This document shows positions 34,544 to 58,833 of a stretch of DNA of 64,000 nt, in pieces; position 1 is the first letter of the stretch; each line of letters opens with the position of its first letter. The position numbers and the translations under genes were made by a program. Under the pieces are notes generated by a model. The model was not told the origin of the DNA, made no database searches, and was given only the letters and a program-made list of their open reading frames with translations. This DNA comes from Clostridia bacterium (GTDB lineage Bacteria > Bacillota > Clostridia > Christensenellales > Aristaeellaceae): NCBI GenBank assembly GCA_017396845.1, contig JAFQKQ010000107.1, forward strand, positions 3,453 to 67,452, written 5' to 3'.

Positions 34544-34562
34544 AGGAAAGAGGAAAACGATC

Positions 34563-36296: not shown

Positions 36297-36309
36297 GAGG
36301 CTTGCATTT

Positions 36310-42743: not shown

Positions 42744-42886
42744 GGAAGCAACAACAACGATACGGCAAAAATGCGCCGAAACGGACAAATGACAGGCTTT
42801 GATTCATAATATGCATACGCGCATTTTCATACGGACTCCGCACGCACCCGTTCACCGGCATTCTTGAACAAATGGAGGAATTCACG

Positions 42887-45730
42887 ATGAAAAAACTCTG
42901 CACGGCCTCGCTTCTCCTTCTAAGTCTTCTTTTCATCCTCTTTTCGGCGTCCGCGCTGAAATCCGGCACCTTCGAATACACAGTAAACAGCGACGGCACC
43001 GCAACCATCACCGACTTCATTTCCAATACCAACCACGTCTCCATACCCTCTTCGATTCAGGGGTACACGGTTACCGTAATCGGCAGCAAGGCTTTCTCCA
43101 GCCACTCCAAGCTGGAATCCATAGAGATTCCGAACACCGTTACCGAGATCGGCGAACACGCCTTTACCTACTGCTCGAGCCTTAAAAGCATCACCATTCC
43201 CGGCTCCGTAAAAACCATACAGGCCTTTGCCTTCAACGACTGCGACAGGCTGATCGACGTTACCATCGAAGAAGGCGTTGAGAGCATTCAGAACCGAGCT
43301 TTTGCAAGCTGTAAGAATCTCGTCGAAGTTTCTCTCCCCGGAAGCGTTACATACATCGATGCGTACGCGTTTCATTCTCACAATGCAAAGCTTTCCTTCG
43401 CAGTGCCGGATAATTCCTACGCTCTCAGATACTGCAAGGATCAGTCTTTAACCTATAAAATCGAAGAGCGGGAACCCGTCGCCGTCAGCGATCCCTCCGT
43501 CAAGAAAACGGATAGCGGCATTATTTATGAAGTAACCGAAAACGATACGGTTACCATCCTCGGATACACCGGCAGCGAATCTACGCTATTAATCCCCGAT
43601 AAAATCGACGGCTATAAAGTTACCGCCATCGGCGATTATGCATTCAGAAAGAATTCCACACTCTCAAGCGTTAATTTCCCGAATACCCTGACCTCCATCG
43701 GCGACGGCGCGTTTCTTCTGTGCAAAAAGCTCAATTGGATTACCCTTCCCAGCAGCTTAACCCATATCGGTATTTCCGCATTTTCCGACTGCGAAGCGCT
43801 TTCCTGGATCGAAATTCCCAGCGGTGTAACCGTCATCAGCAACTATGCGTTTCAGAATTGCAAATCTCTTATGATGGTCACGCTTCCCGATACCCTCAAG
43901 GTCATTAAAAAGTACGCATTCAGTATGTGCGATAACCTCTACACGATCGAAATCCCCGATCAGGTAACCACCATCGGTGAAGCCGCCTTCTGGCACTGCG
44001 ACGCTCTTTATAAAGCCACCGTCCCGGAAAGCGTAACCTTCATCGGCAGCAATGCTTTTACCGGCTGCGCTTCTTTCCTCCAAATTCTCGTTCATCCCGA
44101 TTCCAAGGCCGAGCAGTATTGCCGGGAAAACCGGATCAGCAGCTCCCATATCGGCCCTCCCATTCCGGAAGGACTCGAATATTTCTACAACGATAACGGC
44201 ACTATTACCATTACGGGTTACACCGGTTCCGCATCAGAGATTGCTATTCCCGACATAATCGACGGCTTAACCGTTGCAACCATACGCGACAGAGCCTTCT
44301 TCGGCTGTACATCCCTTACGCAGATTTCGATCCCGGACAGCATTACCTATATCGGCGGCTCTGCATTCCGCGAGTGCACCTCTCTTGAAAGCATCGTCCT
44401 TCCCGACAGCGTGATATATATGGGCTCATCTGTGTTCTCAAAATGTACCTCCCTCAAAAGCATCACCCTTCCCAAAGGTCTTTCCTCCATCAGCAGCAAT
44501 TTGTTTGTCAATTGCCGTTCGCTTACGGAGATCGTTATTCCCGGCGCCGTTACCTCCATCGGCGAAATGGCATTCTCCGGCTGCACTGCTCTGACCTCCG
44601 TTCTCATTCCGGACAGCGTCACTGCCATCGAGAAGCACGGCTTCTATTCCTGCTCCTCTCTTTCAGAGATTGCCATTCCGGACAGCGTCGCTTCCATCGG
44701 CGACTGCGCATTTGAAGGCTGCGCCTCACTTACGCAGCTCACCCTTCCCAAAGCATTATCATCCATCGGCAATAACGCGTTCTCAGGCTGTCACGCTGAC
44801 CTTTCCGTGTTTGTATACCACGGCTCCTATGCCGCCGATTACTGCCAAAATAGCGGCGTTTCCTATGTATATCTGGATGCGCCGGCTGTAACGCCTACGC
44901 CCGAGCCTACCTTTACGCCCACGCCCGAGCCTACCTTTACGCCCACGCCCGAGCCCACCTTTACGCCTACCCCCGAACCCACCTTTACGCCTACCCCCGA
45001 GCCCACTTTCACGCCTACGCCCGAGCCCACTTTCACGCCTACGCCCGAGCCCACTTTCACGCCTACGCCCGAGCCGACAGAGACTCCGGCTCCCGCCCCC
45101 GCGTACGCATATACCTCCGGCGACTGGACCTACTATCTCTCCGGCGACGGCACCGCGTCCATTGAAAGATATATCGGAAGCGACAGCGAAGTATATATTC
45201 CGGAATCCATCGACGGCTATACCGTCGCGAAGCTGAATCCGGATTCGTTCAAATTCTGCAAATCCGTATCCGAAATATATATCCCGAACACTCTGGTTTC
45301 GATTCCCTCGAATCCTTTCACGGGATGCTGGCTGCTTTCCGCCTTCCATGTATCGGGCGACCACCCGGTATTTGAAGTAGCAAACGACGCGCTGATCGAT
45401 AAAACCGAACGCCGCCTTGTATGCTATCCGTCGATTTTCTCCGCATCCTCCTATGTCATTCCGGAGGGCATAGAGATCATCGGCTCTTACGCATTTGAAT
45501 ACTGCACGGAGCTTAGTGAAATTGTTCTTCCCACATCCCTCAGGGAAATCCACGATTATGCATTCTCCTGCTGCAGCTTCAGAATCATGAATCTCCCCGA
45601 AAACATCACTTTCATTTCAGATACGGCTTTCGATGACTGCTATCCCACCCCTGCCTTCATGGTATACGGTGATTCATATGCGGATGAATACTGCCGTAAA
45701 AACCGCCTGACCCACGGCTACCTGCCGTAA
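42887..45730 (+). CDS. secreted BspA-type leucine-rich-repeat protein: two LRR blocks joined by a (TPTPEPTF)n linker
   Basis: The signal peptide is [23 protein letters not shown]. There are many repeats of about 23 aa of the form I.IP.SVT.IG..AF..C..L. The start is the ATG at 42887, after GGAGGA. Confidence 0.85.
44891..45076 (+). repeat. 24-bp tandem repeat, about 7.7 copies, encoding TPTPEPTF
   Basis: Units start at 44891 and recur every 24 bp up to 45059. Three synonymous sub-variants occur (..CCTACCTTT, ..CCCACCTTT, ..CCCACTTTC). Confidence 0.95.
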
Positions 45731-45853: not shown

Positions 45854-47107
45854 TTGCAGCTTTTATATGGAGCAATCGAAGATATAGACAGATGGATGGA
45901 CTTGGTAAAACAAGTCAGATGGAATTTTCCGGGACTGGAAACGGAGACGGCGTTTAAGGAACACCGCGAAACCGTACTTAAATTTATGGGAAAGCGGCAA
46001 GCCATCTGCGTAAAGGACGGAAGCAGGATCGCGGGCGTGATGCTGTTTTCAAGGGGAAAGAACATGATATGCTGCCTGGCCGTACTCCCTACTTACCGCA
46101 GACGCGGCGTCGCTTCGATGCTCATGGATGAAGCGCTGAAAAATCTTGACAGATCAAAGGAGATATCCGTATCCACTTTCAGAGCCGACGATGAAAAGGG
46201 CGCCGCTCCGAGGGCACTGTATGAGAAATACGGGTTTATCGAAGATCGGCTGATTGCGGAAATGAATTACCCGAATCAGAAATACATTCTCCATCCGGAG
46301 GGTTCTTTACGAAAAGACAGGCAGCTTGCGATAAACAGCATGGTTCAAAGAATCGTAAATAAACTCTCAGGCCTGCGCCCGTCTGTTTATCTGTACGGTT
46401 CAAGCGTTCTTGACGATTTCAGGCTCGGATGGAGCGATATCGACATACTGGTTCTTACAGATGGGCATATTTCAGAGGAACAGGCGGAAGCGCTGGTCCG
46501 CCTTCGCCAGGAAATGCTTATAGAGGAACCCGGAAATCCCTATTACCGCTTATTTGAGGGCGGCATTCTCCCGCTGGACAATTTTCTGACAAAAACACCC
46601 GGGCGCACGGTGTATTGGGGCACAAGCGGTGAACGGATCACCAATACATATGTATTTGACAGCTTTTCTGCGGCGCAGCTGATCGATCAGGGCGCGCTTT
46701 TATACGGAAAGGATATTCGGGATAAACTCTCCCGTCCCGATTTTCACGAGCTGTATGCCGCTGCTTTGCGCCATTATGAAACCATTCGAAAGTACGCCCG
46801 AGGCGCCGAGATCAGCCTATACTCCTTCGGCTGGCTGATGGACACGGCCCGGTGCATTTACACGCTTCGAACCGGCGGCATTATTTCTAAAACCGACGCC
46901 GCCGAATGGGCGCTTAAAAACAATCTCTGCCCCGACGCGGACATAATGAAAACCGCCCTCGCGGTTCGAAAAAATCCGCTAAAATATAAGTCCAGCCTGC
47001 AGGCCCTCATAAATGCCGATATGCTCTTTAAAGCGGTACAGCGCTTTGCGGATATTCTTGAAAGGGAATTAAAAACAAATCTGAAACAGAACCTGTCATA
47101 TCCCTGA
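45854..47107 (+). CDS. fusion protein: N-terminal GNAT acetyltransferase plus C-terminal aminoglycoside (AadA/ANT-like) nucleotidyltransferase module
   Basis: The GNAT motif A is LAVLPTYRRRGVASMLM, followed by YEKYGF. The NTase motif is LYGSSVLDDFRLGWSDIDILVL (GS...DxD), followed by a helical C-terminal domain. The TTG start lies 9 nt after GGGAGG. Confidence 0.75.
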   Translation: MQLLYGAIEDIDRWMDLVKQVRWNFPGLETETAFKEHRETVLKFMGKRQAICVKDGSRIAGVMLFSRGKNMICCLAVLPTYRRRGVASMLMDEALKNLDRSKEISVSTFRADDEKGAAPRALYEKYGFIEDRLIAEMNYPNQKYILHPEGSLRKDRQLAINSMVQRIVNKLSGLRPSVYLYGSSVLDDFRLGWSDIDILVLTDGHISEEQAEALVRLRQEMLIEEPGNPYYRLFEGGILPLDNFLTKTPGRTVYWGTSGERITNTYVFDSFSAAQLIDQGALLYGKDIRDKLSRPDFHELYAAALRHYETIRKYARGAEISLYSFGWLMDTARCIYTLRTGGIISKTDAAEWALKNNLCPDADIMKTALAVRKNPLKYKSSLQALINADMLFKAVQRFADILERELKTNLKQNLSYP

Positions 47108-47770: not shown

Positions 47771-47854
47771 TTGTATGATAAAAGCGTTCTACGGAAGAAA
47801 AGTTCACAGCATAGGAAGTATTCTGAATCTGCTTAACGACAGGAGCGATTGATT

Positions 47855-48430
47855 GTGAAGAAAGTATTTTTAGTTGGCGATTCCATACGGCTGGGCTACG
47901 ATTCCTGCGTGCGCGATCTTTTGGAAAACGAAGCGCAGGTGTATTGGTCGAATGAAAATGCGCGCTTTGTCATGCATACGCTCAGGTATCTGCACGAATG
48001 GGCGCAGGTGGATTGCGATCCCGAAAAGATCGACGTCGTTCACTGGAACAACGGCCTTTGGGATGCGCTCCTCTTAACGGGCGACGGCACGTTTACCCCC
48101 ATAGAGCATTACGAACATGCGCTTCACAGAATCGCAAAGCGCATGAAGACGGTGTTCCCCAACGCAAAGATCATCTTCGGCCTCACAACAAGCGTCGTAA
48201 CCACCCGCGTAGAAAACTATGCGCTCGTTCGCAGGAATGAAGATATCGAGGCCTTTAACGAGGCCGCCCGCAGAGTTATGAAGGAGGAAGGCGTCTTCGT
48301 AAACGATCTGTATGCCGTTTCCTCTGCAATGCCCGACGATATGCATACCCCGGAAGGCGTGCATTTTACCCCGGAAGGCTATAAACTGCTTGCAGAGCAT
48401 GTGGTAAAGGCCGTAAGGGAAGTCATGTAA
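47855..48430 (+). CDS. SGNH/GDSL family hydrolase
   Basis: Block I is FLVGDSIRLGY (GDS), with a later WNNGLWD and a C-terminal D..H-type region. The GTG at 47855 is 9 nt after AGGAG, whereas the TTG at 47849 is too close to it. Confidence 0.8.
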   Translation: MKKVFLVGDSIRLGYDSCVRDLLENEAQVYWSNENARFVMHTLRYLHEWAQVDCDPEKIDVVHWNNGLWDALLLTGDGTFTPIEHYEHALHRIAKRMKTVFPNAKIIFGLTTSVVTTRVENYALVRRNEDIEAFNEAARRVMKEEGVFVNDLYAVSSAMPDDMHTPEGVHFTPEGYKLLAEHVVKAVREVM

Positions 48431-48535: not shown

Positions 48536-50740
48536 TCATCCGCCCGCGTCTATTTCCCGGTGCGTGGTCGGCGAAACGCCCCACTTTCGGCGGAAAGCCT
48601 TGTAGAACGTGGTGGTGTTGGCATATCCCACCATTTCGGCTACATCCTTTACCGGAAGCGTAGAGGAAGACAACAGCGTTTCCGCTTCCGTAAGGCGGAT
48701 ATTTTCAAGATACGCGGAATAAGTAACGCCCATGTGCGCCTTGAAAAAGCGCGACATCATACTTTCCGACATATCAAACAGATCTGCTAGCGCGGTAAGC
48801 GACAGCGCGGGGTTGGCGTAATTCTCCTGCAGATAAATCTTAATCGACTGCGCCAGATCGTTTTCCGAATCCTCTTTCCTTCCGCCAATGGAGGAAACCG
48901 CGTAATGAACGGCGTTTCTCAATAGCGAAAGCACATGGGTAAAGGGCAGTGCATCGGGGTACTCGGAGAGGGTCGCGCGGATGGCGGAAAGATCGTATTG
49001 ACCGCTCAGCCGCATCAGTATTCCGCGGATATCATAGAAGAATTGACGGCATACCTCTCTTTCCCGGTACAGGGTAAGTTCCTCTCCGAACTCCTTTTTT
49101 GCAATCGCATCATAATAGGCGCACGCATCCTCCTCGGATCCTGCCATTATGAGCCGGTTCAGATGGTCGATATCCTCCATTGAAATGCCGTACACTTCAT
49201 AACCGTTTCTCTTTTCCGTGAACCGAACGCCGCTCAAATTCCATGCGCGGAGTTCCCGAAGCTCGTTATATGCGTCATTAAACGCAGTGTGGATATAATC
49301 AAGACCCTTCGCAGATTCGGAAACGCCCACTGCAAATTTACGATCCTTTATACACTCTTCAAGCGCCGTAAGCACCTGCTCAAGCTCCTCCGAAAGCGCC
49401 TGCATACTTTCTTCGCTGTCTTCGCATATATGAAGCACTGCAAATACGCCCGGATCCACCGAATATACCATTGCGTCGCCGAAATACTGCTTTAACAGTG
49501 TTTCGCATTTGGAAATATGTCCTTCGTCCATCGCCTCCGGCCCGGTGTCCGATACGACCGCCACGCGAATTCTGCTTTCCGCATGAAACTGAGAAACGGA
49601 TTTCAGCGCTGTGCGTTCAGCGGGCGTTAAGTACTCGCTTCTCAAAAGCTTATCCATTAAAGCCGTCCGAAGCGCGGGCTTAAGCATAACAAGATTTTCG
49701 GATATGCGTTGGTATTCGTTTTCAAACTGATAAAAGGACGTATGTCCGTAATACTGGAGGCGGCGGGTGAGCTTCTGCATCGGGAAGGCCAGATACACGG
49801 AGAAGAGAGCCACAAGCACAAGCAGCATAATTAAAATCACGTACAATAAGAGCTTCAAAAACTTTGTAAAGCCTGAAATCTGCGAAACAATACTGTCATC
49901 GCTTACGGAAAGATAGATCGTCGTTCCGAGAAAGTCTATTCTTTTAGAGATAAATGTGGTTTTCAGTTCGTCATTGTAAAACAGATTCTCTTCGCCTTCC
50001 GGGAGAGGGAGGTATTCATACAGCACACGGTTTCGCGATACAAGCCCCGCAGGCTCGCCTACCTGGTTCCCGTTGATCGCCATTTCAAACATCTTTTCAA
50101 CATTCAGCTGAAGTACAACATAAACATCGTCGGGAACATTGCTGAGCGGCTGGATATAAAAGCAGGATAAATATACCTCTCCGTCGTTATATGCGTAAAA
50201 GGCGTGCGTTAACCGCCTTACGTATTGCGTGGAAACATTCCCGCGAAGAATGGCAAGGAATTCCTCCGCCGATTCTCCCTGGGCGCCGATAGAAAGTGAT
50301 TGAACCGCTCGCGGCAGATTATGGTAGATCCCGCCGTCTGCTGCGCAGATAAAGGGACTTTCTCCGTCAAACAGCAGAAACATGCGCGAGATTACGCCAT
50401 TTAGCATTTCTCTATCCGGTTTGACGCTTTGAAGCAGTTTCTTTAGATCTATAAGCTTTGCAAAATCCGCATTGCCCAGCGTTTCTACTTCCTTTAACGC
50501 AACCAATGTCTCATTGTATTTCAGATTTGTCGTCTGGTTTATCAGATTTGAAACCGCGTCGTTTACTTCCCGCGCGCCCTGTTCCAGAAGCGAGGATACA
50601 TGGCTGATGGCGTTATCCTTCATTGTTCTCTGCGCGCCGTTGTACACAAATACATAAATCAAAAGAAAGATTACCAGCACAAAAAAAGCAGTGGCCGTTA
50701 CATGCGTTATGGGGCGCAGACGCGATGATCTGTTCGTCAT
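48536..50740 (-). CDS. membrane-embedded AraC-family one-component regulator: two TM helices flank an extracytoplasmic domain of about 260 aa, with a C-terminal AraC HTH
   Basis: The TM helices are ATAFFVLVIFLLIYVFVY and LLLYVILIMLLVLVALFSVYLAF. The C-terminus ...VKDVAEMVGYANTTTFYKAFRRKWGVSP is an AraC HTH. Confidence 0.85.
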   Translation of the reverse strand: MTNRSSRLRPITHVTATAFFVLVIFLLIYVFVYNGAQRTMKDNAISHVSSLLEQGAREVNDAVSNLINQTTNLKYNETLVALKEVETLGNADFAKLIDLKKLLQSVKPDREMLNGVISRMFLLFDGESPFICAADGGIYHNLPRAVQSLSIGAQGESAEEFLAILRGNVSTQYVRRLTHAFYAYNDGEVYLSCFYIQPLSNVPDDVYVVLQLNVEKMFEMAINGNQVGEPAGLVSRNRVLYEYLPLPEGEENLFYNDELKTTFISKRIDFLGTTIYLSVSDDSIVSQISGFTKFLKLLLYVILIMLLVLVALFSVYLAFPMQKLTRRLQYYGHTSFYQFENEYQRISENLVMLKPALRTALMDKLLRSEYLTPAERTALKSVSQFHAESRIRVAVVSDTGPEAMDEGHISKCETLLKQYFGDAMVYSVDPGVFAVLHICEDSEESMQALSEELEQVLTALEECIKDRKFAVGVSESAKGLDYIHTAFNDAYNELRELRAWNLSGVRFTEKRNGYEVYGISMEDIDHLNRLIMAGSEEDACAYYDAIAKKEFGEELTLYREREVCRQFFYDIRGILMRLSGQYDLSAIRATLSEYPDALPFTHVLSLLRNAVHYAVSSIGGRKEDSENDLAQSIKIYLQENYANPALSLTALADLFDMSESMMSRFFKAHMGVTYSAYLENIRLTEAETLLSSSTLPVKDVAEMVGYANTTTFYKAFRRKWGVSPTTHREIDAGG

Positions 50741-51016
50741 GTAATAACCGCCTTTCCTGTACTGATTTCATCATAACGTTAAATATATATCTTAAATAGC
50801 ATCTTATTATATAAATTTTCACGAGTTCAGTCAATAGAATGAAAAAATTTACCGATCTGCAAGAAAGTTACGGTCGTTATCTGCATCATATGCATGCATT
50901 TTACGCACATGCAACAATTGGCACTTGTGATTAAACCATCGAGATGATATTGTGAACATACGCATAAACGGTATAGATCAAGGTGTAATTCGTCTCAAGA
51001 TTAGGAGGAATGCCCA

Positions 51017-51964
51017 GTGACCACCCCATCCTCCCGCAAGATAGTTCCCAAGCACAGCAGTCTCCTTACGCGTATCCGGCGCACCCGTGCGCTGTATATG
51101 CTCCTTATCCCCGCTATCGTGTTTTTAATTGTTTTCCATTACTACCCCATGTACGGCGCGATTATCGCTTTTAAAAACTATACCATTTCCGGCGGCATAC
51201 TGGGCAGCGAATGGGTGGGCTTAAAAAACTTTCAGAAGTTCATCAATTATTATGAATTCCCGCTGATCCTGAAAAATACGCTCCGAATTTCCATATACAC
51301 AATCACCGCTTCCTTCTTTATAAAGCTCATCCTTTCGCTTTCGCTCAACTGCATGCGCTTAGAGGGCTATAAGAAAATAGTGCAGACCGTTACCTACATG
51401 CCGCACTTTATATCCACCGTTGTTATCGTAGGTATTCTCATTCGCTTTTTCAATCCCTCTATCGGTCCGATTTCAAAGCTTATTCAATCCCTGGGCGGCA
51501 CAAACCGCGATTTGATGGGCGTATCGGAAGCGGTTCCTCACATATATGTATGGTCAGGCATATGGCAGAATGCCGGCTGGTCAACCATACTGTATCTTGC
51601 AACGCTTTCCAGTGTCGACCCAACGCTTCATGAAGCCGCGATTGTCGACGGCGCAACGCGCATGCACCGCGTATGGCATATCGATCTTCCCACCCTCATT
51701 CCTACTATTGTAATTACCCTTATTATGGATATGGGCAGAGTAATGAGCGTGGGCGCCGATAAAATGCTGCTTATGCAGAACAGCCTGAATCTCTCCACTA
51801 CCCAGATCATTTCCACCTATGTATACGGCGTTGGCATCGCTTCCGCATCTCCGCAGTATTCCTACGGCGCGGCAATCAGCCTTTTCAACACCGTAATCAA
51901 CTTCTCGCTTCTTATGATTGTGAACACCATCAGCAAGAAGCTCAATCAGGCCGCATTGTGGTGA
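51017..51964 (+). CDS. carbohydrate ABC transporter permease (LplB-like)
   Basis: A polytopic protein with the EAA loop HEAAIVDGATRMHRVWHIDLP. The GTG start lies 8 nt after AGGAGG. Confidence 0.9.
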   Translation: MTTPSSRKIVPKHSSLLTRIRRTRALYMLLIPAIVFLIVFHYYPMYGAIIAFKNYTISGGILGSEWVGLKNFQKFINYYEFPLILKNTLRISIYTITASFFIKLILSLSLNCMRLEGYKKIVQTVTYMPHFISTVVIVGILIRFFNPSIGPISKLIQSLGGTNRDLMGVSEAVPHIYVWSGIWQNAGWSTILYLATLSSVDPTLHEAAIVDGATRMHRVWHIDLPTLIPTIVITLIMDMGRVMSVGADKMLLMQNSLNLSTTQIISTYVYGVGIASASPQYSYGAAISLFNTVINFSLLMIVNTISKKLNQAALW

Positions 51965-51981
51965 GAAGGGAGAAAAACGAA

Positions 51982-52872
51982 ATGCGCAGCAAAAGCCACA
52001 TCAAAGATACAAAAGGCGAACGGATTTTCTACCTTCTGAACGGTTTATTCCTTACAATCTTTCTGATCTTCACGCTTTATCCGCTTATGTGCGTAATCAG
52101 CGGAGCGATTTCCGATCCCATTCCCGTCGCAAGGGGCGAAGTAACGTTTTATCCGAAGGGCTTCAGCCTTCGCGGCTTTGAAATCAACCTTCAAAACCCG
52201 AAGGTGTTAAGGGGCTTTGGAAACTCTCTTTTCTACACAGTGGTCGGAACGGTATTAAACCTCTTTATCACAGTCATCACCGGCTATGTCATGTCCCGAA
52301 AAGAGCTTCCCGGCCGAACCGCCATTTCCTTTTTCATGGCGTTCACCATGTGGTTTTCGGGCGGTTTGATTCCTACATTCCTGCTCGTTCGCGATCTGGG
52401 TCTTTTTAATACCCGATGGGCGCTGCTTATCCCGGGCATGCTGAACGTATGGAACATGATCGTGTGCCGAACGTTTATCAACTCCACAATTCCCGAAGAA
52501 ATGTTTGAGGCGGCGTCGATCGACGGCTGCGGCTACATGCGTTTCCTGTTTTCCATGGTTCTTCCGCTTTCCAGCGCCATCATCGCCGTGCTCACGCTGT
52601 GGTACGCCATCGGCCATTGGAATTCGTATTTCAACGCGCTCATCTATGTATATGAGCCTGAGCTTCAGCCGCTTCAGCTGTATCTTCGAGCAACTTTGAT
52701 TGAAAATATAGGCGACTTGTCCGATGTAGAGGCTTCTACGGAGTCTTTGGGCATTCAGGAGCTGATCAAGAATTCCCTGATTCTGATAGCATGTCTCCCC
52801 CTTTGGATTCTCTACCCGTTTGTCCAGAAATTCTTTGTAAAGGGCGTAATGATCGGCTCGGTCAAAGGATAA
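51982..52872 (+). CDS. carbohydrate ABC transporter permease (LplC-like)
   Basis: The EAA loop is FEAASIDGCGYMRFLFSMVLP. The ATG at 51982 follows AAGGGAG. Confidence 0.9.
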   Translation: MRSKSHIKDTKGERIFYLLNGLFLTIFLIFTLYPLMCVISGAISDPIPVARGEVTFYPKGFSLRGFEINLQNPKVLRGFGNSLFYTVVGTVLNLFITVITGYVMSRKELPGRTAISFFMAFTMWFSGGLIPTFLLVRDLGLFNTRWALLIPGMLNVWNMIVCRTFINSTIPEEMFEAASIDGCGYMRFLFSMVLPLSSAIIAVLTLWYAIGHWNSYFNALIYVYEPELQPLQLYLRATLIENIGDLSDVEASTESLGIQELIKNSLILIACLPLWILYPFVQKFFVKGVMIGSVKG

Positions 52873-52917
52873 TCGGCGAATGGAATTCGCTGAATATAAA
52901 ACTAAGGAGGTTCTACC

Positions 52918-54507
52918 ATGTTCAAGAAGCTCGTATCTCTGCTGCTCGCTATTTCGATGATGGTAATAGCGTTCGGCGCGTTCGCAGAAGTGACCCCAAA
53001 GGGCACGCTCCCGATCGTAAATGAACCCATCACCCTCACCGTTGCAATCCCGGTAGCCGCCAAGTGCGAAGACATTCACACCAATGCGTTCACCCTCTGG
53101 ATTGAAGAAAAAACCGGCATCGATCTTGAAATTATTGAGCTCGCTCCCACCGATACCGCAACGCAGGTAAACACCATCATGCTTTCGGGCAATCTTCCCG
53201 ACATGTTTATGTGCTACTACTTCGGCTATGATGAGCTGGCTTCCTACGTAGACGCAGGCTACATTACCGATCTTACGGAATATGTTGAGGAATACGGCGA
53301 CGAGTATTATAAATTCCTCGAAGAGACTTCCATCTATGGAAACGGCGAAGCACACGTAACGATTAACGGAAGAATTTACGGCGTTCCCACCATGGCTGAC
53401 ATCGTTACATCGATCTACGCCACGAACCACCTGATGATGAACGGCCTGTTCCTTGATGCGCTTGACGCGGAAATGCCGACTACGCTTGACGAGCTGTACG
53501 ATCTGCTTGTTCGAATCCGCGATGAGGATGTCAACGGCAACGGCGATCCCGACGACGAAATTCCGCTGAGCGGTTCCACCAACCGCGATTTCCTGATTGA
53601 GCAGATCGGCGGCGCATTCCAGTACACCGACAAAGAAACCTACCTTAAGGTAAACGACGGCGAAGTTGAATTCATCGGCGCAAACGACGAATTCCATCAG
53701 ACGGTTGAGTTCCTTAAGCAGCTTCTCGATGAAGGCCTCCTCGATCCCGCTTTCTTTACGCAGGACGACGCGGCGCTCCTCACTCTGAACACACAGGAAT
53801 ATCCGCTGATCGGCGTAAACGGAAGCTACATTTCCAATCAGTACGATGCATCTACCGACCTTATGGCCAGCCTGAACATCGCTCCGAACCTTGAGGGCCC
53901 CGACGGATACGTATCCTCCAACGTAATCACTCCTACCTTTGATCGCTCCATCGTCATTACCACTGCCTGCGAAAATGTAGACGCAGCTTTCCGCCTTGCA
54001 GATTTCTTGCTTTCCGAAGAAGCCGCCATGTACGGCCGTGTTGGCAGAGAAGGCATTGAGTGGGCATACGCCGATCCCGCGAAGGGACTCAACGGCAGAA
54101 ACGGCCAGCCCGCGAAGTACGAGCTTCTTAAGCCCCAGGAGTGGATCCTTCCCTCCACCAACGTTATCTGGCGCTGCAACGGCTTCAGCCATGTAGACGT
54201 ATTCAACTACATCGGCGAGGATCCCAACGGCATGACCGGAAGACTGGCAAAGGCTGTTTCCGATTATGACCTCGTAGCGCAGACCAGCAACGAAGCGCTC
54301 CCGCAGCTTCTGATGGATCCCGAGACCAGCGCTGAATACAAAGAGCTTCAGAAGCTCATTTGCAACTATGTAAATGAGAACTATGCCAAGTTCGTACTCG
54401 GCGACCGCTCCATGGACGAGTGGGACGCCTACGTTCAGACGCTTGAAGAGATCGGCATTGAAAGATACGTGCAGATCGCTCAGGAAGCCTACGACGCAAT
54501 GAACTAA
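52918..54507 (+). CDS. large (529 aa) extracellular solute-binding protein (LplA-like, family 1)
   Basis: It has a signal sequence, the size and composition typical of oligosaccharide-binding SBPs, and an AAGGAGG RBS. Confidence 0.85.
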   Translation: MFKKLVSLLLAISMMVIAFGAFAEVTPKGTLPIVNEPITLTVAIPVAAKCEDIHTNAFTLWIEEKTGIDLEIIELAPTDTATQVNTIMLSGNLPDMFMCYYFGYDELASYVDAGYITDLTEYVEEYGDEYYKFLEETSIYGNGEAHVTINGRIYGVPTMADIVTSIYATNHLMMNGLFLDALDAEMPTTLDELYDLLVRIRDEDVNGNGDPDDEIPLSGSTNRDFLIEQIGGAFQYTDKETYLKVNDGEVEFIGANDEFHQTVEFLKQLLDEGLLDPAFFTQDDAALLTLNTQEYPLIGVNGSYISNQYDASTDLMASLNIAPNLEGPDGYVSSNVITPTFDRSIVITTACENVDAAFRLADFLLSEEAAMYGRVGREGIEWAYADPAKGLNGRNGQPAKYELLKPQEWILPSTNVIWRCNGFSHVDVFNYIGEDPNGMTGRLAKAVSDYDLVAQTSNEALPQLLMDPETSAEYKELQKLICNYVNENYAKFVLGDRSMDEWDAYVQTLEEIGIERYVQIAQEAYDAMN

Positions 54508-54611
54508 AAATGCATCCGCCCGTTCCCGATTGTATACCCTGCATGAAGTGAACGGCAAAAACAAGCGAAGCTTCGTTTTTCAACTTCCCGCTCCGCCTTA
54601 GGATGGGATCG

Positions 54612-54631
54612 TCAAACGAAGCTTCGTTTGA
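54612..54631. repeat. perfect 20-bp palindrome TCAAACGAAG|CTTCGTTTGA
   Basis: Read directly from the sequence. A related copy (AAGCGAAGCTTCGTTTTT) lies at about 54563-54580. Confidence 0.9.
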
Positions 54632-54813
54632 AGCCTATGTATGGATGATTTTCCCGGGAGCGACCACCGGGGGCGGTTGATCTGACATGGCGCGTCCCCT
54701 CGCGGGGGCGCGAACCTGACGTTTGCGCCGTCATGCGGTTGCCGGCAATAAATAACAGAATCCAATGAAACCGTTATCACATACCGGCCGCTCATGCTTA
54801 AGCTCCATTCCAT

Positions 54814-55058
54814 AGGTCGGCTGAAGGCCGAATAGCGACAGCGATTTGTAAAATCGCCGAGCGTACCCGGCGGCGCTTGCGCTGACGGGCGGTGTAGAGG
54901 TCGGCTGAAGGCCGACTGGCGACAGCGATTTAAAAAATCGCCGAGCGTACCCGGCGGCGCTTGCGCTGACGGGCGGTGTAGAGGTCGGCTGAAGGCCGAC
55001 TGGCGACAGCGATTAAAAAATCGCCGAGCGTACCCGGCGGCGCTTGCGCTGACGGGCG
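54814..55058. repeat. 84-bp tandem repeat, about 2.9 nearly identical copies, each with two hairpins
   Basis: Units start at 54814, 54898 and 54982. Each contains GTCGGC-TGAAG-GCCGAC and GCGATT(T)-loop-(A)AATCGC. It is non-coding and lies between the SBP gene and the glycyl-radical enzyme gene. Confidence 0.95.
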
Positions 55059-55211
55059 AAATAAAAAATGGGCGCCAGGAGGCTTGTAAATCAACAATTT
55101 CTTATTTTATGCAACTTTTCGTTTTTACAACAGCCTCCGGCGGCAAAGCCGCCCGAAAGGGCCGTCCCCTTCGCTTTCACCAAAATAATCTGAATTAAAG
55201 GAGCTTCACAC

Positions 55212-57407
55212 ATGCTTTGGAATCGTTTTCATAAAGACAGAGAATTTTTGGATCTATACGAAAATCCGAATTTCCCGCCGGAGACAGGCGTAATAGATAA
55301 GGATGAGGCATCCAAAGCCGTCGCAAAAATTCAGGGAAGATCACCCGATATTATCAAGGCGAAGGCATGTGCGTTTGTTCTCGAACACTGCGCCATAGAC
55401 GTTAACCCCAAATGCTGGTTCGGCGTAAACGTTGCAGGGCGTGTACCCAGCCTTAAATACGGAGCCAATAATACCATTAATCAGCTGATTGGTAAATTTT
55501 TTAGCGATCAGACAAAGGGAAATCCCATTGAAAAGACGCTTACCGCCATGAGCGAAAGCTACGCAGGCGCAGGCGCGCACTTTCCCGACCACGTGCACTA
55601 TGTGCCCGACTGGGACGCCGTATTGCATCTGGGCTATCCGGGGCTTCTTAAGCGCGCACGCGATTACCGAAATAAACACGATACGCTCACAAATGAGCAG
55701 ATTGATTTCTATGATTCCGTAGAAATCATGCTTACCGCCTGTATACGCTTTATATCCCGCCTTGCCGATCTTGCAGAGGAGAGAATTCAGGAGGATCCGC
55801 GCATGCCGCTTCGCGTAAAATGCCTTCGCTCTCTCGAAAGCGGCGCGCCCAAAGATATTTATGAAGCGATGCAGCTTATGCACATTCATCAGTTTCTCGG
55901 CCAGTTCGTAGAGTGCGCGCAGGTACGCTCGCTCGGCGACATCGACAGGCTCCTGTATCCCTATTTCTTAAAAGACCTCTATCGCGGCGCATACACCCGC
56001 GAACAGGTGAAGGAGCTTTTCCAGTATTTCTTTATTATCTATGATTTCCAGAAGCACTCATATAACCAGCCGGTATCCATCGGCGGTACTGACATATTCG
56101 GAAAAACCGCATTCAACGAGCTTACAGATGTAATTCTGGACGCATATGACGACGCAATGCTCTGTAATCTCAAAATTCATGTATTTGTCGGCGAAAACAC
56201 GCCCGACGCAGTTCTCCGCAAAATGATGGCGATGATACGCAGGGGATACGGCTCATTCGTATTCATGAATACGGATATCGGCATAAAAGCTATGGAAAAA
56301 GCATATGGCATACCCGTTCAGCCGCATATGCTCGGCTCTCAGGGCTGCTATAACTTTAATATCAAGGCATATCCCCAGCACTCGAATCAAACTCGCATCA
56401 ACCTTGTAAAAGCGATTGAGCTTGCATTCTTTGAGGGCGTTGACCCGCTTTCCGGTCATGAAATCGGCGCAAAGACGATGCCGGTTGAAAACATGAAGAG
56501 CTTTGCCGATTTCAAAGAGGCGTTTGAAGCGCAGATAGATTCTCTTACCAATCAGCATATAGAAATCTGTGATTTCTACGACGGCATCATGGGCAAGGTC
56601 AATCCCACGCCGCTTATGTCCTCGACTTTCGATTTCAGCATGGAAGCGGGCAAAAGCTGCTTTGAATTCGGTTCCACATCCGTACTCATGATGGGAATCG
56701 GCACCACGGCGGACTGCCTGATGATGGTGAAAAAGCATGTGTTTGACCAAAAGGACGTATCCATTACAACGCTGCGCGACGCGCTCAAGGCCGACTGGCA
56801 GGGCTATGAAGAGCTTCAAAGGATGCTGTACAGCGATCCTGAAAAGTACGGAAACAATCTGGACGAGCCCGACAGATTTGCCGTAGAACTTTCCGAAAAC
56901 ATGATCCGGCGCGTGACCGGCAGAAAGAATAAAAGAGGCGGCCAGTTCATCTGCCACTTTGAAACCATCGACCGCTGCTTCCGTTCCGGAAGAGTGACAG
57001 GCGCAACCCCCGACGGAAAATTTGCCAGAAAGCCTTTTTCCAAGAACTTGAACGCCGCTTTCGGGCAGGACAGAAACGGCTTGACCGCAATGATTCTGTC
57101 CGCCTCCAAGTTCGATACGACCCTCATGCCCATCGGTGCGCCCGTCGACTTTATGCTGCACCCCTCCGCAACCAAGGGCGAAGAAGGACTTGACGCGATG
57201 ATTCAGATTCTGAGAACGTTTAATTCGCTCGGCGGCTACGCGCTTCAGGGCAACGTGCTCGACGCGAACGTACTGCGCGAAGCACAGAAGCATCCGGAGT
57301 TGTATAAAAATCTGCAGGTGCGCGTCAGCGGATGGAACTGGAACTTTGTGGACATGACCAAGGAATATCAGGATACATTCATCATGCAGGCGGAAGCATG
57401 CGTATGA
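55212..57407 (+). CDS. glycyl radical enzyme (PFL2/glycerol-dehydratase-like superfamily), substrate unknown
   Basis: The C-terminal fingerprint is LQVRVSGWNWNF (RVxG[FWY]). The candidate thiyl Cys is C379 in GSQGCYNF. RBS AAAGGAG. Confidence 0.9.
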   Translation: MLWNRFHKDREFLDLYENPNFPPETGVIDKDEASKAVAKIQGRSPDIIKAKACAFVLEHCAIDVNPKCWFGVNVAGRVPSLKYGANNTINQLIGKFFSDQTKGNPIEKTLTAMSESYAGAGAHFPDHVHYVPDWDAVLHLGYPGLLKRARDYRNKHDTLTNEQIDFYDSVEIMLTACIRFISRLADLAEERIQEDPRMPLRVKCLRSLESGAPKDIYEAMQLMHIHQFLGQFVECAQVRSLGDIDRLLYPYFLKDLYRGAYTREQVKELFQYFFIIYDFQKHSYNQPVSIGGTDIFGKTAFNELTDVILDAYDDAMLCNLKIHVFVGENTPDAVLRKMMAMIRRGYGSFVFMNTDIGIKAMEKAYGIPVQPHMLGSQGCYNFNIKAYPQHSNQTRINLVKAIELAFFEGVDPLSGHEIGAKTMPVENMKSFADFKEAFEAQIDSLTNQHIEICDFYDGIMGKVNPTPLMSSTFDFSMEAGKSCFEFGSTSVLMMGIGTTADCLMMVKKHVFDQKDVSITTLRDALKADWQGYEELQRMLYSDPEKYGNNLDEPDRFAVELSENMIRRVTGRKNKRGGQFICHFETIDRCFRSGRVTGATPDGKFARKPFSKNLNAAFGQDRNGLTAMILSASKFDTTLMPIGAPVDFMLHPSATKGEEGLDAMIQILRTFNSLGGYALQGNVLDANVLREAQKHPELYKNLQVRVSGWNWNFVDMTKEYQDTFIMQAEACV

Positions 57408-58279
57408 ACGGCATATTGATGGACATCAAGCGCATGGCCGTTCACGATGGACCGGGATTGCGCACGACGCTCTTTTTAAAGGGCTGTCCGCTCAGCTGTA
57501 TCTGGTGCCATAACCCCGAAGGTCAAGACATGAAGCCTCAAATCGCGTGGTTTTCTCATAAATGCGTATCCTGCGATCTGTGCACACGCGCGTGCCCCTT
57601 TCAAGGCGCGCGCGATATGAAAGACCGCGATAAGTGCATCGTCTGCGGCAAGTGCGTATCCGCCTGTCCAACGGGCGCACGTAAGCTCTATGGGCGTGAA
57701 ATCACGCCGGAAGAAGCGCTTGCCATCGCGCTTGAAGACCGCGTCTTCTATGGAACCGTCGGCGGCATAACGCTGTCCGGAGGCGAACCGCTCATGCAGC
57801 CGGATTTTGCACTCAAAGTACTTGAGGACGCAAAAAAAGCAGGAATAACCACGTGTCTTGACACCTGCGGTTACGCCCCCTGGGGCGTATTTGAAAAAAC
57901 TCTTGACATATGCGATACATATCTTTACGACATTAAGCACATGGACGACGCTATGCACACGGCGCTCACCGGAAAAGGAAACGCGTTCATCTTGAGTAAT
58001 CTTAAAAAGCTTTCCGAACGCGGCGCAAGAATCCAGATTCGAATACCGCTCATTCCGAACATAAACGATTCGCCTGAGCACATCGCTCATGTTGCCAAAT
58101 TTCTGAAATCCGTGCATCCCGAATGCGTAAAGGTTCTTCCCTATCACCAGATGGCGCGCATGAAATATTTGGCGCTGGGTCTTGCCGATCCCCTCCCCGA
58201 GAGTGCGGATGATCTTACCAAACGCGCAGAACGCGCTAAAGATCAGCTGATCACGGCCGGGCTTAAGGCGTATATCTGA
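57404..58279 (+). CDS. glycyl-radical enzyme activating enzyme (radical SAM, with two auxiliary 4Fe-4S motifs)
   Basis: The radical SAM motif is CPLSCIWCHNPE (CxxxCxxC). The ferredoxin-like motifs are CVSCDLCTRACP and CIVCGKCVSACP. The ATG overlaps the upstream stop as ATGA. Confidence 0.9.
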   Translation: MNGILMDIKRMAVHDGPGLRTTLFLKGCPLSCIWCHNPEGQDMKPQIAWFSHKCVSCDLCTRACPFQGARDMKDRDKCIVCGKCVSACPTGARKLYGREITPEEALAIALEDRVFYGTVGGITLSGGEPLMQPDFALKVLEDAKKAGITTCLDTCGYAPWGVFEKTLDICDTYLYDIKHMDDAMHTALTGKGNAFILSNLKKLSERGARIQIRIPLIPNINDSPEHIAHVAKFLKSVHPECVKVLPYHQMARMKYLALGLADPLPESADDLTKRAERAKDQLITAGLKAYI

Positions 58280-58342: not shown

Positions 58343-58399
58343 AAAAGCGCAGCGCCTCCCCGCTTTCTTTGGATTCCAGCGGGGAGGCGCTGCGCTTTT
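58343..58399. terminator. strong bidirectional terminator
   Basis: A perfect 22-bp stem, AAAAGCGCAGCGCCTCCCCGCT...AGCGGGGAGGCGCTGCGCTTTT. Confidence 0.8.
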
Positions 58400-58407
58400 A
58401 TGTTCCC

Positions 58408-58833
58408 TTAAGCGGGAAACTCGATATCATACCGCGTTCCGTTTGAAAAAAGCACGCCGTCTGTCAGGCGAATTTTGAGCAAGCAGGTGTTTGCGTCTTC
58501 TTCGTTGGTATGGCCGTTATCATACCATGCGGCGAAAGCAGCGCGGAGGATTTTCATGGTTTCTTCGTTTTCCGGAAGCAGAACATGGCCTAAATTTTCT
58601 CCAACGCCGTGGGCGGTGAACCAGTCACCGCTGATTGCCGTCTTCGGATTTTTTTCGATTTGCTTCATCTTTCCGGACAGCGCATAGGTTATCATATAAA
58701 AAGCGCCGTCTATATATACCGCGTCCACCGTGCGCACATGCGGCATGCCGTTTTCTACAGTGGCAAGGGCGATCAGCGAATCTTTGCCGAAGCGTTCGGT
58801 GAGGATTTTTTCCGTGATTTCATTATGCTTCAT
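58408..58833 (-). CDS. pyridoxamine 5-prime-phosphate oxidase-like (FMN-binding split-barrel) family protein
   Basis: A 141-aa protein with the general-stress-protein-26-like pattern ...LATV..G.PH.R.V......F....... AGGAGG RBS. Confidence 0.75.
   Translation of the reverse strand: MKHNEITEKILTERFGKDSLIALATVENGMPHVRTVDAVYIDGAFYMITYALSGKMKQIEKNPKTAISGDWFTAHGVGENLGHVLLPENEETMKILRAAFAAWYDNGHTNEEDANTCLLKIRLTDGVLFSNGTRYDIEFPA

Follow-up and report, generated by a model that had tools for sequence, protein, structure and literature searches.

Which reaction might an oxygen-sensitive glycyl-radical enzyme (GRE) catalyse if its gene stands, together with that of its activase (AE), behind an ABC importer and a membrane-bound AraC-type regulator? 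The question is raised by one locus in a 64,000-nucleotide stretch of DNA from an uncultured Clostridia bacterium of the gut, here called the window. GREs carry out much of the difficult anaerobic chemistry of the gut, such as the formation of TMA, H2S, p-cresol and skatole and the use of hydroxyproline and anhydro-sugars, and according to a superfamily review of June 2026 whole GRE clades are still without an assigned function. No published match was found for the organisation AraC-importer-GRE-AE, and the same review describes none such, in line with the first-pass annotation of this DNA, which had matched it to no described pathway. The locus is probably a self-contained, substrate-inducible catabolic module. 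It would import a carbohydrate-like compound that is unphosphorylated and possibly O-acylated, and a C-O bond of this compound would then undergo radical cleavage.

Layout of the locus

ORF calls, Pfam and hydropathy found all six genes, the structured gap of about 700 bp and the terminator where they had first been placed, with one correction. The activase ORF had been listed as 57332-58279 (plus strand), but its start is most likely the ATG at 57404, because it overlaps the GRE stop there as ATGA and is called at this site in same-species contigs and homologues. The features are as follows.

47849..48430, plus strand: cytoplasmic SGNH/GDSL esterase, 193 aa (Pfam Lipase_GDSL_2)
48536..50740, minus strand: AraC-family regulator, 734 aa (HTH_18/HTH_AraC, hydropathy)
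50741..51016, no strand: putative divergent intergenic control region between regulator gene and importer operon (consensus match)
51017..51964, plus strand: ABC importer permease 1, 315 aa (BPD_transp_1)
51958..52872, plus strand: ABC importer permease 2, 304 aa from GTG 51958 (BPD_transp_1)
52918..54507, plus strand: family-1 extracellular binding protein (SBP), 529 aa (Pfam SBP_bac_1 and SBP_bac_8)
54508..55211, no strand: structured non-coding gap, 704 bp (repeats, palindrome, folding)
55212..57407, plus strand: GRE, 731 aa (PFL-like and Gly_radical)
57404..58279, plus strand: radical-SAM GRE activase, 291 aa from ATG 57404 (TIGR02494)
58343..58399, no strand: bidirectional intrinsic terminator (hairpin and A/U runs)
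58408-58833, minus strand: PNPOx-like gene, convergent with the activase gene and sharing its terminator

Permease 2 may start at 51982 instead, giving 296 aa, as called in the same-species contig L095. The strong terminator annotated after the activase gene has a perfectly paired stem of 22 bp, preceded by an A run and followed by a U run (z = -7.5); an Rfam search returned spurious hairpin matches at this site.

By Pfam, the two BPD_transp_1 permeases and the family-1 SBP form a CUT1/LplABC-type carbohydrate ABC importer, and NCBIfam gave weak UgpA/UgpE and GlcT/GlcU matches only. The SBP has an N-terminal hydrophobic signal or anchor without a lipobox Cys. Its relatives in the PDB, FusA, Smon0123 and AlgQ1/2, show weak similarity (95-50 bits) and have FOS, GAG disaccharides and alginate oligosaccharides as ligands; as oligosaccharide binders, they are consistent with the earlier description of the importer as oligosaccharide-type.

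The regulator ends in an HTH_18/HTH_AraC double helix-turn-helix (PF12833, 73.5 bits, residues 651-729), and hydropathy places TM1 at about residues 15-38 and TM2 at about 295-320 around an extracytoplasmic domain of about 255 aa, which agrees with the membrane AraC regulator that had been annotated. No Pfam family matched this sensor domain, and a weak Pfam match points to a GGDEF_2-like linker domain between TM2 and HTH_18. A putative promoter of the regulator gene (TTGACT-17-TATAAT, 50834-50806, minus strand) was recognised by its match to the consensus.

In the gap, an 84-bp unit is repeated in tandem 2.9 times (three repeats at 54814-55064), and a long palindrome forms a hairpin at 54562-54631. 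The gap folds more stably than shuffled sequence (z = -4.4), it had no match in Rfam, and a search for terminator-like sites found none on its plus strand. The spacer between the SBP and GRE genes of homologous loci is only 60-110 bp long, the last 45 nt or so of the gap resemble the short GRE leader of these homologues, and the number of repeats varies between same-species samples (3 in L095, 2 in L096). Judged by these comparisons, the gap is a lineage-specific repeat insertion and not intrinsic to the system, so that the 700 bp of structured non-coding DNA described before are indeed present and structured but belong to this lineage. High structure in the gap counts against co-transcription of the importer and GRE-AE genes.

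Between 47.1 and 63.7 kb no gene for a glycoside hydrolase, kinase, BMC shell protein or dehydrogenase was found. The reported absence of partner enzymes thus holds for the core of the window, but a conserved SGNH esterase gene adjoins the regulator gene, convergent with it and outside the operon. The esterase has a GDS motif and neither a TM nor a signal segment, which predicts a cytoplasmic location, and is a candidate accessory enzyme. It is 36-47% identical to the products of SGNH genes beside GRE/EamA/AE in L014, L016, L018-L021, L023 and L074; orthologues occur in nine loci and SASA esterases in five. The absence does not extend to sister loci either, as genes for Gfo/Idh/MocA proteins, IolE-like TIM barrels, NagA/NagB-like proteins, a NAGPA phosphodiester glycosidase, PHP, PGM and YghZ-like aldo-keto reductases (AKR) are found in the loci of close GRE homologues. 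Distant GRE paralogues have peptidase and PTE genes as neighbours.

The radical enzyme and its CXN motif

The C-terminus of the GRE, QVRVSG707W, carries the RVxG glycyl radical motif (PF01228, 70.5 bits against a cut-off of 22.2). Its Cys loop reads GSQGC379-Y-N381-F, in which C379 aligns with C434 of the trans-4-hydroxy-L-proline dehydratase HypD and C433 of the B12-independent glycerol dehydratase (GD) and is invariant in an alignment of 22 family members. GD His164 is aligned to His129, which belongs to an invariant H-x-V-P-D-W motif and is the equivalent of the general acid His160 of HypD. The adjacent gene encodes a cognate activase with a CPLSCIWC cluster motif and a ferredoxin-like insert (TIGR02494, 315.9 bits against a cut-off of 174.35). 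An AlphaFold (AF2) model of the GRE reached a pLDDT of 89 and a pTM of 0.90, and its top Foldseek matches were GD, propanediol dehydratase (PD) and HypD (TM 0.85-0.88, probability 1.00). On the basis of these motifs and this model, the protein can confidently be regarded as a GRE with a dehydratase-like ten-stranded alpha/beta barrel fold.

The enzyme lies below all curated family cut-offs (TIGR01774, 308.8 versus 678.2; HypD, 270 versus 1100; CutC, 211 versus 1050; HpfG, 257 versus 1000), and the HpsG model was likewise not reached. A pyruvate/ketoacid formate-lyase was rejected on account of the QGCYN loop with its single Cys and a TIGR01255 score of 78 versus 994. A GRE-associated microcompartment (GRM) locus was rejected as well, since neither a BMC shell nor an aldehyde dehydrogenase gene was present among the Pfam-scanned ORFs from 30 to 64 kb or in the homologous loci.

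In place of the CXE motif of GRE eliminases and isomerases, the enzyme has C379-Y-N381, a replacement of Glu that the first-pass annotation overlooked. According to the June 2026 review, CXE is kept in all characterised eliminases and isomerases (GD, PD, HypD, CutC, IslA, HpsG, HplG, YbiW and PflD), and its Glu, which follows the catalytic Cys at a distance of two residues, acts as base and substrate ligand. As mutation of the equivalent Glu abolished activity in CutC and IslA, the exchange might have inactivated the GRE and left the locus as a relic, and one homologous locus (L100) does carry a fragmented GRE. Such decay is highly improbable, however, for an intact ORF of 731 aa in which both the Gly and the Cys loop are complete and to which an activase is coupled, the more so as the gene is identical across three metagenome samples and CXN is kept in sequences from many MAGs over an identity range of 39-100%, which indicates purifying selection. 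All 26 family sequences that share at least 39% identity have Asn, one further sequence has CXS, and sister clades keep CXE; the CXN clade itself is rare and was seen only in Clostridia MAGs. Judged from this distribution, CXN is a conserved motif and not a one-off mutation.

Recurrence of the module

Conservation of the AraC-ABC-GRE-AE adjacency in related genomes had been named beforehand as a check, and the adjacency held across divergent lineages and reciprocally from the SBP side. The order AraC (2 TM)-permease-permease-SBP-GRE-AE is shared by no fewer than five further metagenomic lineages, whose GREs are 73-47% identical to the one here. It comprises the same six genes in L090 (GRE 73%, SBP 58%), L002/L003 (GRE 71%, SBP 58%, AraC 43%) and L091/L098 (GRE 64%, SBP 56%, AraC 36%), and in L008 (GRE 47%, SBP 44%, AraC 26%) the AE-GRE order is swapped. 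Permease 1 is 58-76% identical to its counterparts in GRE-linked loci, and regulator orthologues (43-25% identity) occupy the same divergent position in L002, L091/L098, L008, L100 and L101. The flanking genes are different at every conserved locus. Reciprocally, all four close SBP homologues with context checked (58-46% identity) adjoin GRE and AE genes, which follow, for example, in L098 (56%), L100 (51%) and L101 (46%). About 20 of the 26 CXN loci have a dedicated transporter (ABC or EamA) and an AraC regulator beside GRE-AE.

A mobile GRE-AE cassette with its own leader could also have come to lie beside an unrelated oligosaccharide importer, the two being regulated separately and acting on different compounds. 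At other loci, GRE-AE cassettes from this clade lack a transporter altogether (L001, L089) or are accompanied by one of the EamA type instead, and therefore the importer is not obligatory. Moreover, a terminator-like hairpin is conserved just upstream of the GRE gene in homologues, behind an amidohydrolase gene (L001) or an SBP gene (L002, L090), so that the GRE-AE pair might be under control of its own. Integrase, relaxase and resolvase genes near L001 and L002 and the 704-bp structured gap in the window would fit such an origin. Independent neighbours are nevertheless distinctly unlikely, as the same importer family adjoins in at least seven independent contexts with different flanks, the reciprocal SBP result points the same way, and homologues have short gaps, with no plus-strand terminator found in the long one. 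GRE genes are rare, which makes repeated chance adjacency very unlikely. On this comparative evidence, the importer-GRE adjacency exceeds chance, because it recurs in independent genomic contexts. The SBP and GRE trees are incongruent, with SBPs at 51% and 46% identity pairing with CXE-type GREs that are only about 33% identical to the GRE here, and this suggests module shuffling.

Proposed reaction

If the locus works as a catabolic module, the regulator, a membrane-anchored one-component protein, would detect an extracellular ligand by its outside domain and activate the divergent importer operon. The importer, judging from its family, would take up an unphosphorylated carbohydrate-like compound by means of two permeases and a large oligosaccharide-class SBP, with the ATPase supplied in trans. 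The compound is possibly O-acylated, and the neighbouring cytoplasmic esterase might trim it, as co-occurrence of the genes suggests. The activase, a clear member of its family and translationally coupled to the GRE, would install the radical on Gly707. A thiyl radical at Cys379 would then take a hydrogen atom from the substrate, and the C-O bond beta to the substrate radical would break, either in a dehydration or in an ether or glycosidic cleavage as in GRE dehydratases and anhydro-sugar isomerases. His129 would serve as acid to the leaving group, and Asn381, in place of the Glu base, would only hydrogen-bond the substrate. The carbonyl product might pass to housekeeping enzymes or, in extended loci, to co-encoded oxidoreductases. 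The repeat-filled gap would be a recent insertion into an otherwise short spacer.

A more specific proposal, which can be put forward only tentatively, is that the CXN clade forms a new functional class of GREs that act on an unphosphorylated carbohydrate derivative imported by an ABC system and, without the canonical Glu base, cleave or open one of its C-O bonds, be it ether or glycosidic; anhydro-sugars, glycosyl-polyols and de-O-acetylated sugars may serve as examples of the substrate. As the missing Glu is needed by every characterised GRE eliminase or isomerase, the chemistry may also be something else entirely, that is, a new reaction class or a reaction on a substrate other than a carbohydrate, for example the C-N lysis of an amino sugar, an epimerisation or a decarboxylation. 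Strict conservation of CXN beside CXE-type sister clades would fit this, as would the NagA-/NagB-like genes beside some homologues, the peptidase and PTE genes beside distant paralogues, and two invariant residues, Arg239 and Gln237, in an active-site strand aligned to HypD Asp278 and GD His281. Such a departure appears rather unlikely, since fold and size are nearest to eliminases and not to decarboxylases or X-succinate synthases, no small subunits are encoded, and the pairing of SBPs at 46-51% identity with CXE-type GREs suggests a similar substrate class on either side of the E/N divide.

The CXN clade is set apart by having lost a residue considered essential, and the locus offers a concrete target in the search for new anaerobic carbohydrate chemistry. 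The minimal make-up of the module implies that a single radical step renders the compound metabolisable, and the SBP and the extracellular sensor could each be used alone as bait for the ligand. Once the substrate is identified, the GRE superfamily would gain a reaction and possibly a mechanism. A nutrient niche of uncultured Clostridia from ruminant and human guts would also come to light, as would the way in which GRE eliminase-type chemistry can do without a Glu base.

Comparison with known systems

GD (1R8W/1R9D), PD (5I2G) and HypD (6VXC) are the best matches of the GRE by profile (428-390 bits) as well as by fold. They share with it the single catalytic Cys, the RVxG loop, the GD His164 equivalent and a neighbouring dedicated activase with a ferredoxin-like insert. 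From this likeness, the enzyme might be a glycerol/1,2-propanediol dehydratase-type GRE acting on a small diol that enzymes encoded elsewhere free from an imported glycoside (for example propanediol from fucose or rhamnose), and genes for aldehyde or ketone reductases (AKR, ADH, SDR) near some homologues would be in keeping with it. However, the GRE is some 50-60 residues shorter, only 21-24% identical and far below the TIGR01774 cut-off; the CXE Glu is replaced by Asn, GD Asp447 has no equivalent, and GD Tyr339 corresponds to Ser289. In GD, PD and HypD systems the partners are microcompartment, aldehyde dehydrogenase or proline-pathway genes, whereas the GRE here is accompanied by an ABC importer and an AraC regulator in the membrane, and a dedicated large SBP and sensor argue for a larger, specific ligand. 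A small-diol dehydratase is therefore improbable.

YbiW and PflD of 'anhydroglycolysis' (8ID7, 8ID0) act on 1,5-anhydroglucitol-6-P and 1,5-anhydromannitol-6-P. They are the only characterised GREs on sugars, use radical beta-scission to cleave an ether C-O bond of the ring and, in common with the locus described here, need no microcompartment. Unlike the GRE here, they keep CXE and use phosphorylated substrates, whereas ABC import delivers an unphosphorylated solute; this locus has no aldolase gene, and they are not the closest relatives (316-357 bits versus 428 for HypD). Gfo/Idh/MocA enzymes are typical anhydro-sugar enzymes, and the frequent occurrence of their genes near this GRE family is a further likeness.

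Membrane one-component and hybrid sugar sensors with AraC output likewise have an extracytoplasmic sensor fused across the membrane to a DNA-binding domain. Bacteroides hybrid two-component systems and ToxR-type regulators are such fusions that control an adjacent uptake and catabolic locus; in contrast to them, the regulator here has no kinase or receiver domains.

LplABC/CUT1 importers (FusA, 5G5Y; Smon0123, 5GUB; AlgQ1/2) also consist of two BPD_transp_1 permeases and an SBP of about 530 aa, to whose structures the SBP here aligns weakly, encoded in an operon without an ATPase gene and with a divergent AraC-type regulator. They pair with a glycoside hydrolase or lyase, whereas this importer is paired with a GRE. 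If the GRE stood in for a glycoside hydrolase by radical means, it would be understandable that the module needs nothing beyond importer, sensor, GRE and activase to be complete.

Gene map of the locus and the gap before the radical enzyme

The gene map of the first-pass annotation, in which a regulator gene lies beside an importer operon followed by a glycyl-radical enzyme (GRE) and its activase (AE), was reproduced exactly by the list of open reading frames (ORFs) of the window. The features are as follows.

47849-48430: cytoplasmic SGNH/GDSL esterase, 193 aa, directly beside the regulator gene
48536-50740, minus strand: AraC-type regulator, 734 aa (C-terminal HTH PF12833, 73.5 bits; weak GGDEF_2-like central domain)
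51017-51964, divergent from the regulator: BPD_transp_1 permease 1 (domain match)
51958/51982-52872, divergent from the regulator: BPD_transp_1 permease 2 (two alternative starts)
52918-54507, divergent from the regulator: family-1 solute-binding protein (SBP), 529 aa (domain match)
54562-54631: long palindrome in the gap between the SBP and GRE genes
54814-55064: 84-bp tandem repeat in the same gap, 2.9 copies
55212-57407: GRE, 731 aa (PFL-like domain, 309 bits; Gly_radical, 70.5 bits)
From 57404, plus strand: AE (TIGR02494, 315.9 bits against a cut-off of 174; CPLSCIWC cluster motif)
58343-58399: terminator, a 22-bp perfect hairpin between A and U runs (z = -7.5), ending the unit and common to a convergent PNPOx-like gene

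A Kyte-Doolittle scan of the regulator found exactly two hydrophobic segments (~15-38 and ~295-320). As they flank about 255 residues, which match no Pfam family, the protein is classed from its sequence as a membrane-anchored one-component regulator with a predicted outside sensor domain. No ATPase gene for the importer was found in the locus. Structural relatives of the SBP are FusA (fructo-oligosaccharide), Smon0123 (GAG-disaccharide) and AlgQ1/2 (alginate). The protein collection contains a 100% identical copy of the SBP (P0121, NCBI 'MAG: Clostridia bacterium'). The GRE protein search returned nothing above 74% identity, although the contigs with this SBP encode an identical GRE, and the window's own GRE sequence seems to be absent from the searchable protein set.

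The AE had been given a start at 57332. This was moved to 57404, because the ATG there overlaps the GRE stop as ATGA and lies upstream of the CPLSCIWC motif, and because the AE is about 291 aa long as called in contigs of the same species and in all homologues. The strong terminator proposed after the AE was borne out by the hairpin with its A and U runs, and the genes past it lie on the opposite strand and are unrelated to the locus.

About 700 bp of structured non-coding DNA had been described between the SBP and GRE genes, and the gap indeed measures 704 bp, contains only short ORFs and none that is supported, and folds more stably than its shuffles (z = -4.4). A small gene or a missing GRE N-terminus hidden there was rejected, since the GRE has the length of its closest homologues. 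A riboswitch or other known RNA was also ruled out, as an Rfam scan of 47-60 kb gave no match in the gap at E <= 1 and only spurious miRNA-like matches on the terminator hairpin. No plus-strand terminator-like site was detected in the gap. The spacer in homologous loci is only 60-110 bp, and resemblance to their short leaders is limited to the last ~45 nt of the window gap. Two contigs of the window's species, whose proteins are 100% identical, have gaps of 704 and 620 bp, exactly one 84-bp copy apart; three copies are present in the window (54814-55064) and in L095 (11897-12147), and two in the same region of L096, both loci of this species. The species is present in the metagenome samples ERZ28018789, ERZ28019288 and ERZ28654001. 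For these reasons, the gap is a recent repeat insertion of polymorphic length that does not define the system. Neither the 84-bp unit nor the palindrome recurs elsewhere in the window, which thus gives no sign that they belong to a dispersed REP or MITE family.

Directly upstream of the GRE start, three homologous loci (L001, ~9925-9965; L002, ~9935-9975; L090, ~1115-1155) share a conserved GC-rich hairpin with a T run behind it (GCCCGGG..CCCGGGCTGTTTTC), whether the preceding gene encodes an amidohydrolase or an SBP. This element could act in attenuation or termination, or be a leader that moves with the GRE-AE cassette.

A clade of radical enzymes with an altered catalytic motif

The closest relatives of the GRE with solved structures are trans-4-hydroxy-L-proline dehydratase (HypD), glycerol dehydratase (GD), propanediol dehydratase (PD), A. 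fulgidus PFL2 and HpzG, with 428-369 bits for the family profile and 21-24% identity. A confident AlphaFold model built from 22 family sequences (pLDDT 89, pTM 0.90) superposes on GD, PD and HypD at TM 0.85-0.88. The protein scores under every curated family cut-off (TIGR01774, 308.8 against 678) and far under the thresholds of the HypD, CutC, HpfG, HpsG and PFL equivalog models. No curated model names it, and source annotations read at most "pyruvate formate lyase family protein". Identity as a PFL, a decarboxylase or an X-succinate synthase was rejected on the missing Cys-Cys pair, size, low scores and the lack of small subunits.

Both C379, the catalytic Cys, and G707, the radical Gly in RVSGW, are present. 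In the sequence alignment from which active-site equivalences were drawn, His129, invariant in the family, aligns with the general acid His164 of GD, Tyr339 of GD corresponds to Ser289, and Asp447 of GD is without a counterpart. The Cys loop reads GSQGC-Y-N-F, with Asn two positions past the catalytic Cys (CXN). At this position characterised enzymes have a Glu (CXE): it is kept in each of the six C-O eliminases, in CutC, in the C-S lyases and in the three isomerases, forms a hydrogen bond to the substrate or deprotonates it, and proved essential in the enzymes in which this was tested (June 2026 review, PMC13450708).

A scan of GTDB species representatives gave 193 relatives, of which 80 loci were kept, and the alignment of all GRE copies in these loci splits cleanly by the Cys-loop motif. 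All sequences of at least 39% identity to the window GRE carry GC[YFN]N[FL], save one with CXS; their sources are gut MAGs of uncultured Clostridia, Christensenellales or Eubacteriales, sampled in goat, buffalo, roe deer and human (Hadza and other) hosts. Relatives at 31-38% identity are nearly all GCYE and belong to Victivallales, Lentisphaeria, Phycisphaerae and other Clostridia. Oligosphaera ethanolica DSM 24202 (L053) was the one cultured organism in which a family member turned up, and its GRE is of the CXE type. Given this clean split, the loss of the Glu is a conserved character of the clade, and not an artefact of sequencing or a sign of decay. The motifs D-x-x-H-x-V-P-D-W, Q-V-R-S-L-G and R-V-x-G-W-N run through the whole family. 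The close clade is rare, with only ~42 clusters at >=40% identity among 5.8 billion protein clusters searched, none with an informative name.

In L006 (1-22235), L031, L069, L068 and L071, three or four paralogous family GREs form an array within 20 kb, and every one of them has a small AraC regulator to itself; L006 also encodes phosphotriesterase-family, M20 peptidase and beta-lactamase-fold genes. These arrays look like a diversified enzyme family for a set of related substrates.

Recurrence of the importer-GRE arrangement and its accessory enzymes

All genomic contexts come from metagenome assemblies. The arrangement of a two-TM AraC regulator, importer, GRE and AE recurs in related genomes, with identities to the window proteins as listed.

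L002/L003: AraC(2 TM)-permease-permease-SBP-GRE-AE; GRE/SBP/AraC 71/58/43%
L091/L098: AraC(2 TM)-permease-permease-SBP-GRE-AE; GRE/SBP/AraC 64/56/36%
L090: SBP-GRE-AE; GRE/SBP 73/58%
L008: same genes as L002/L003, with AE ahead of GRE; GRE/SBP/AraC 47/44/26%

Looser linkage to ABC genes was found in seven loci (L009, L012, L015, L016, L068, L074 and L093). SBP relatives were taken from a protein-database search, as back-translated patterns in metagenome contigs gave only three remote loci. An AE and a GRE lie downstream of each homologue looked up (58% in L090, 56% in L098, 51% in L100 and 46% in L101). Since the flanking genes differ at every such locus, and include a relaxase, ribosomal protein S16, Spo0A and EamA, these are independent contexts, and with GRE genes being rare, repeated chance adjacency was dismissed. 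In L100 and L101, the GRE that accompanies the SBP is of the CXE type and only ~33% identical to that of the window, which argues that importer and GRE modules have been recombined. The window's clade also occurs without any transporter (L001, L089), and a subclade at 39-44% identity is found with an EamA transporter in the order small AraC - [SGNH] - EamA - GRE - AE. Across 84 non-redundant loci, with genes called by a home-made codon-usage-scored caller plus clustering and counts varying with contig extent, the commonest neighbours are the activase (64/84) and a small AraC regulator (51/84), and the typical family unit comprises a regulator, an optional transporter, GRE and AE.

Two side observations concern these loci. 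The GRE beside the orthologous AraC-ABC unit of L100 (12149-13745) is split into ORFs of 252 and 275 aa, followed by a second PFL-like gene of 837 aa without the Gly loop in the alignment, and could reflect a pseudogene or a fault in assembly. Two of the closest GRE homologues are flanked by integrase, resolvase, ArdC-like and relaxase genes (L001, 146-1294 and 15922-17487; L002, 1-751), and the cassette may at times ride integrative or conjugative elements.

The first-pass annotation had stated that no glycoside hydrolase, kinase, microcompartment shell gene or dehydrogenase accompanies the GRE. Read as a lack of partner enzymes, this holds within 48.5-58.3 kb, but just outside lies the SGNH esterase, which is 36-47% identical to SGNH genes that adjoin EamA-GRE-AE or ABC-GRE at eight further loci. 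Five CXE loci encode carbohydrate esterases of the SASA type. Gfo/Idh/MocA oxidoreductase genes occur in the loci of both close homologues, three in L001 and two in L002. L001 further encodes a NagA-like amidohydrolase, a NagB-like protein and one IolE-like TIM barrel, whereas L002 has two such barrels together with a PHP hydrolase, a phosphohexomutase and a NAGPA phosphodiester glycosidase of 806 aa. A YghZ-type aldo-keto reductase (461 bits, over its cut-off) is found in L009, and Zn-ADH, SDR, Gfo/Idh/MocA and GH42 genes in L015. Together with the structural relatives of the SBP, these enzymes point to a carbohydrate-derived substrate. From this context, the substrate may be O-acylated or may be an amino sugar, with a carbonyl compound as the likely product.

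A GH2-like and Gfo/Idh/MocA pair at 34.5-37.3 kb was rejected as a downstream partner, as an unrelated ABC system and an LRR protein gene lie between and the linkage does not recur. The wider region (34521-37910, plus strand) encodes a 591-aa GH2-N-domain-like protein, a Gfo/Idh/MocA oxidoreductase and a 187-aa ORF; it could be a separate glycoside oxidation unit, and no link to the GRE locus was found. Further plus-strand genes encode a BspA-type surface protein of 952 aa with leucine-rich repeats and a proline-rich stretch resembling cornifin (42872-45730; LRR_5, 569 bits) and a 417-aa fusion of an N-terminal GNAT acetyltransferase domain, a nucleotidyltransferase and AadA_C, the aminoglycoside adenylyltransferase C-terminal domain (45854-47107), which by its domains resembles a bifunctional aminoglycoside-modifying enzyme.

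Proposed function and relation to known systems

Importer and GRE probably form one functional module. In the proposed scheme, the outside domain of the AraC protein would sense a ligand and activate the divergent importer operon, and an ABC system with a shared ATPase would import the compound unphosphorylated; the SGNH esterase may then de-acylate it. In the activated GRE, Cys379 would abstract a hydrogen atom, the beta C-O bond would break, His129 would protonate the leaving group, and Asn381 would hydrogen-bond the substrate instead of deprotonating it. A carbohydrate-like substrate is moderately favoured by the genomic context, and C-O elimination or cleavage as the reaction is a tentative assignment with chances somewhat short of even. 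A minimal sensor-importer-GRE-AE module would make sense if one radical step led to ordinary metabolites.

Enzyme superfamily, activase, importer and regulator each belong to a known kind. What is new is a clade whose catalytic motif is altered and which is repeatedly paired with genes for transport and sensing. The earlier statement that the organisation matches no described pathway stands: none of the GREs listed in the June 2026 review has CXN or is paired with an ABC importer of the oligosaccharide type, and the review emphasises that entire clades lack an assignment (PMC13450708); targeted literature searches on GREs with ABC transporters or sugars, anhydroglucitol or the host phyla gave no description of this family. 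YbiW/PflD provide the precedent for a GRE that cleaves a C-O (ether) bond in a sugar. They retain CXE, their substrates are phosphorylated sugars, and other enzymes are closer relatives of the GRE described here.
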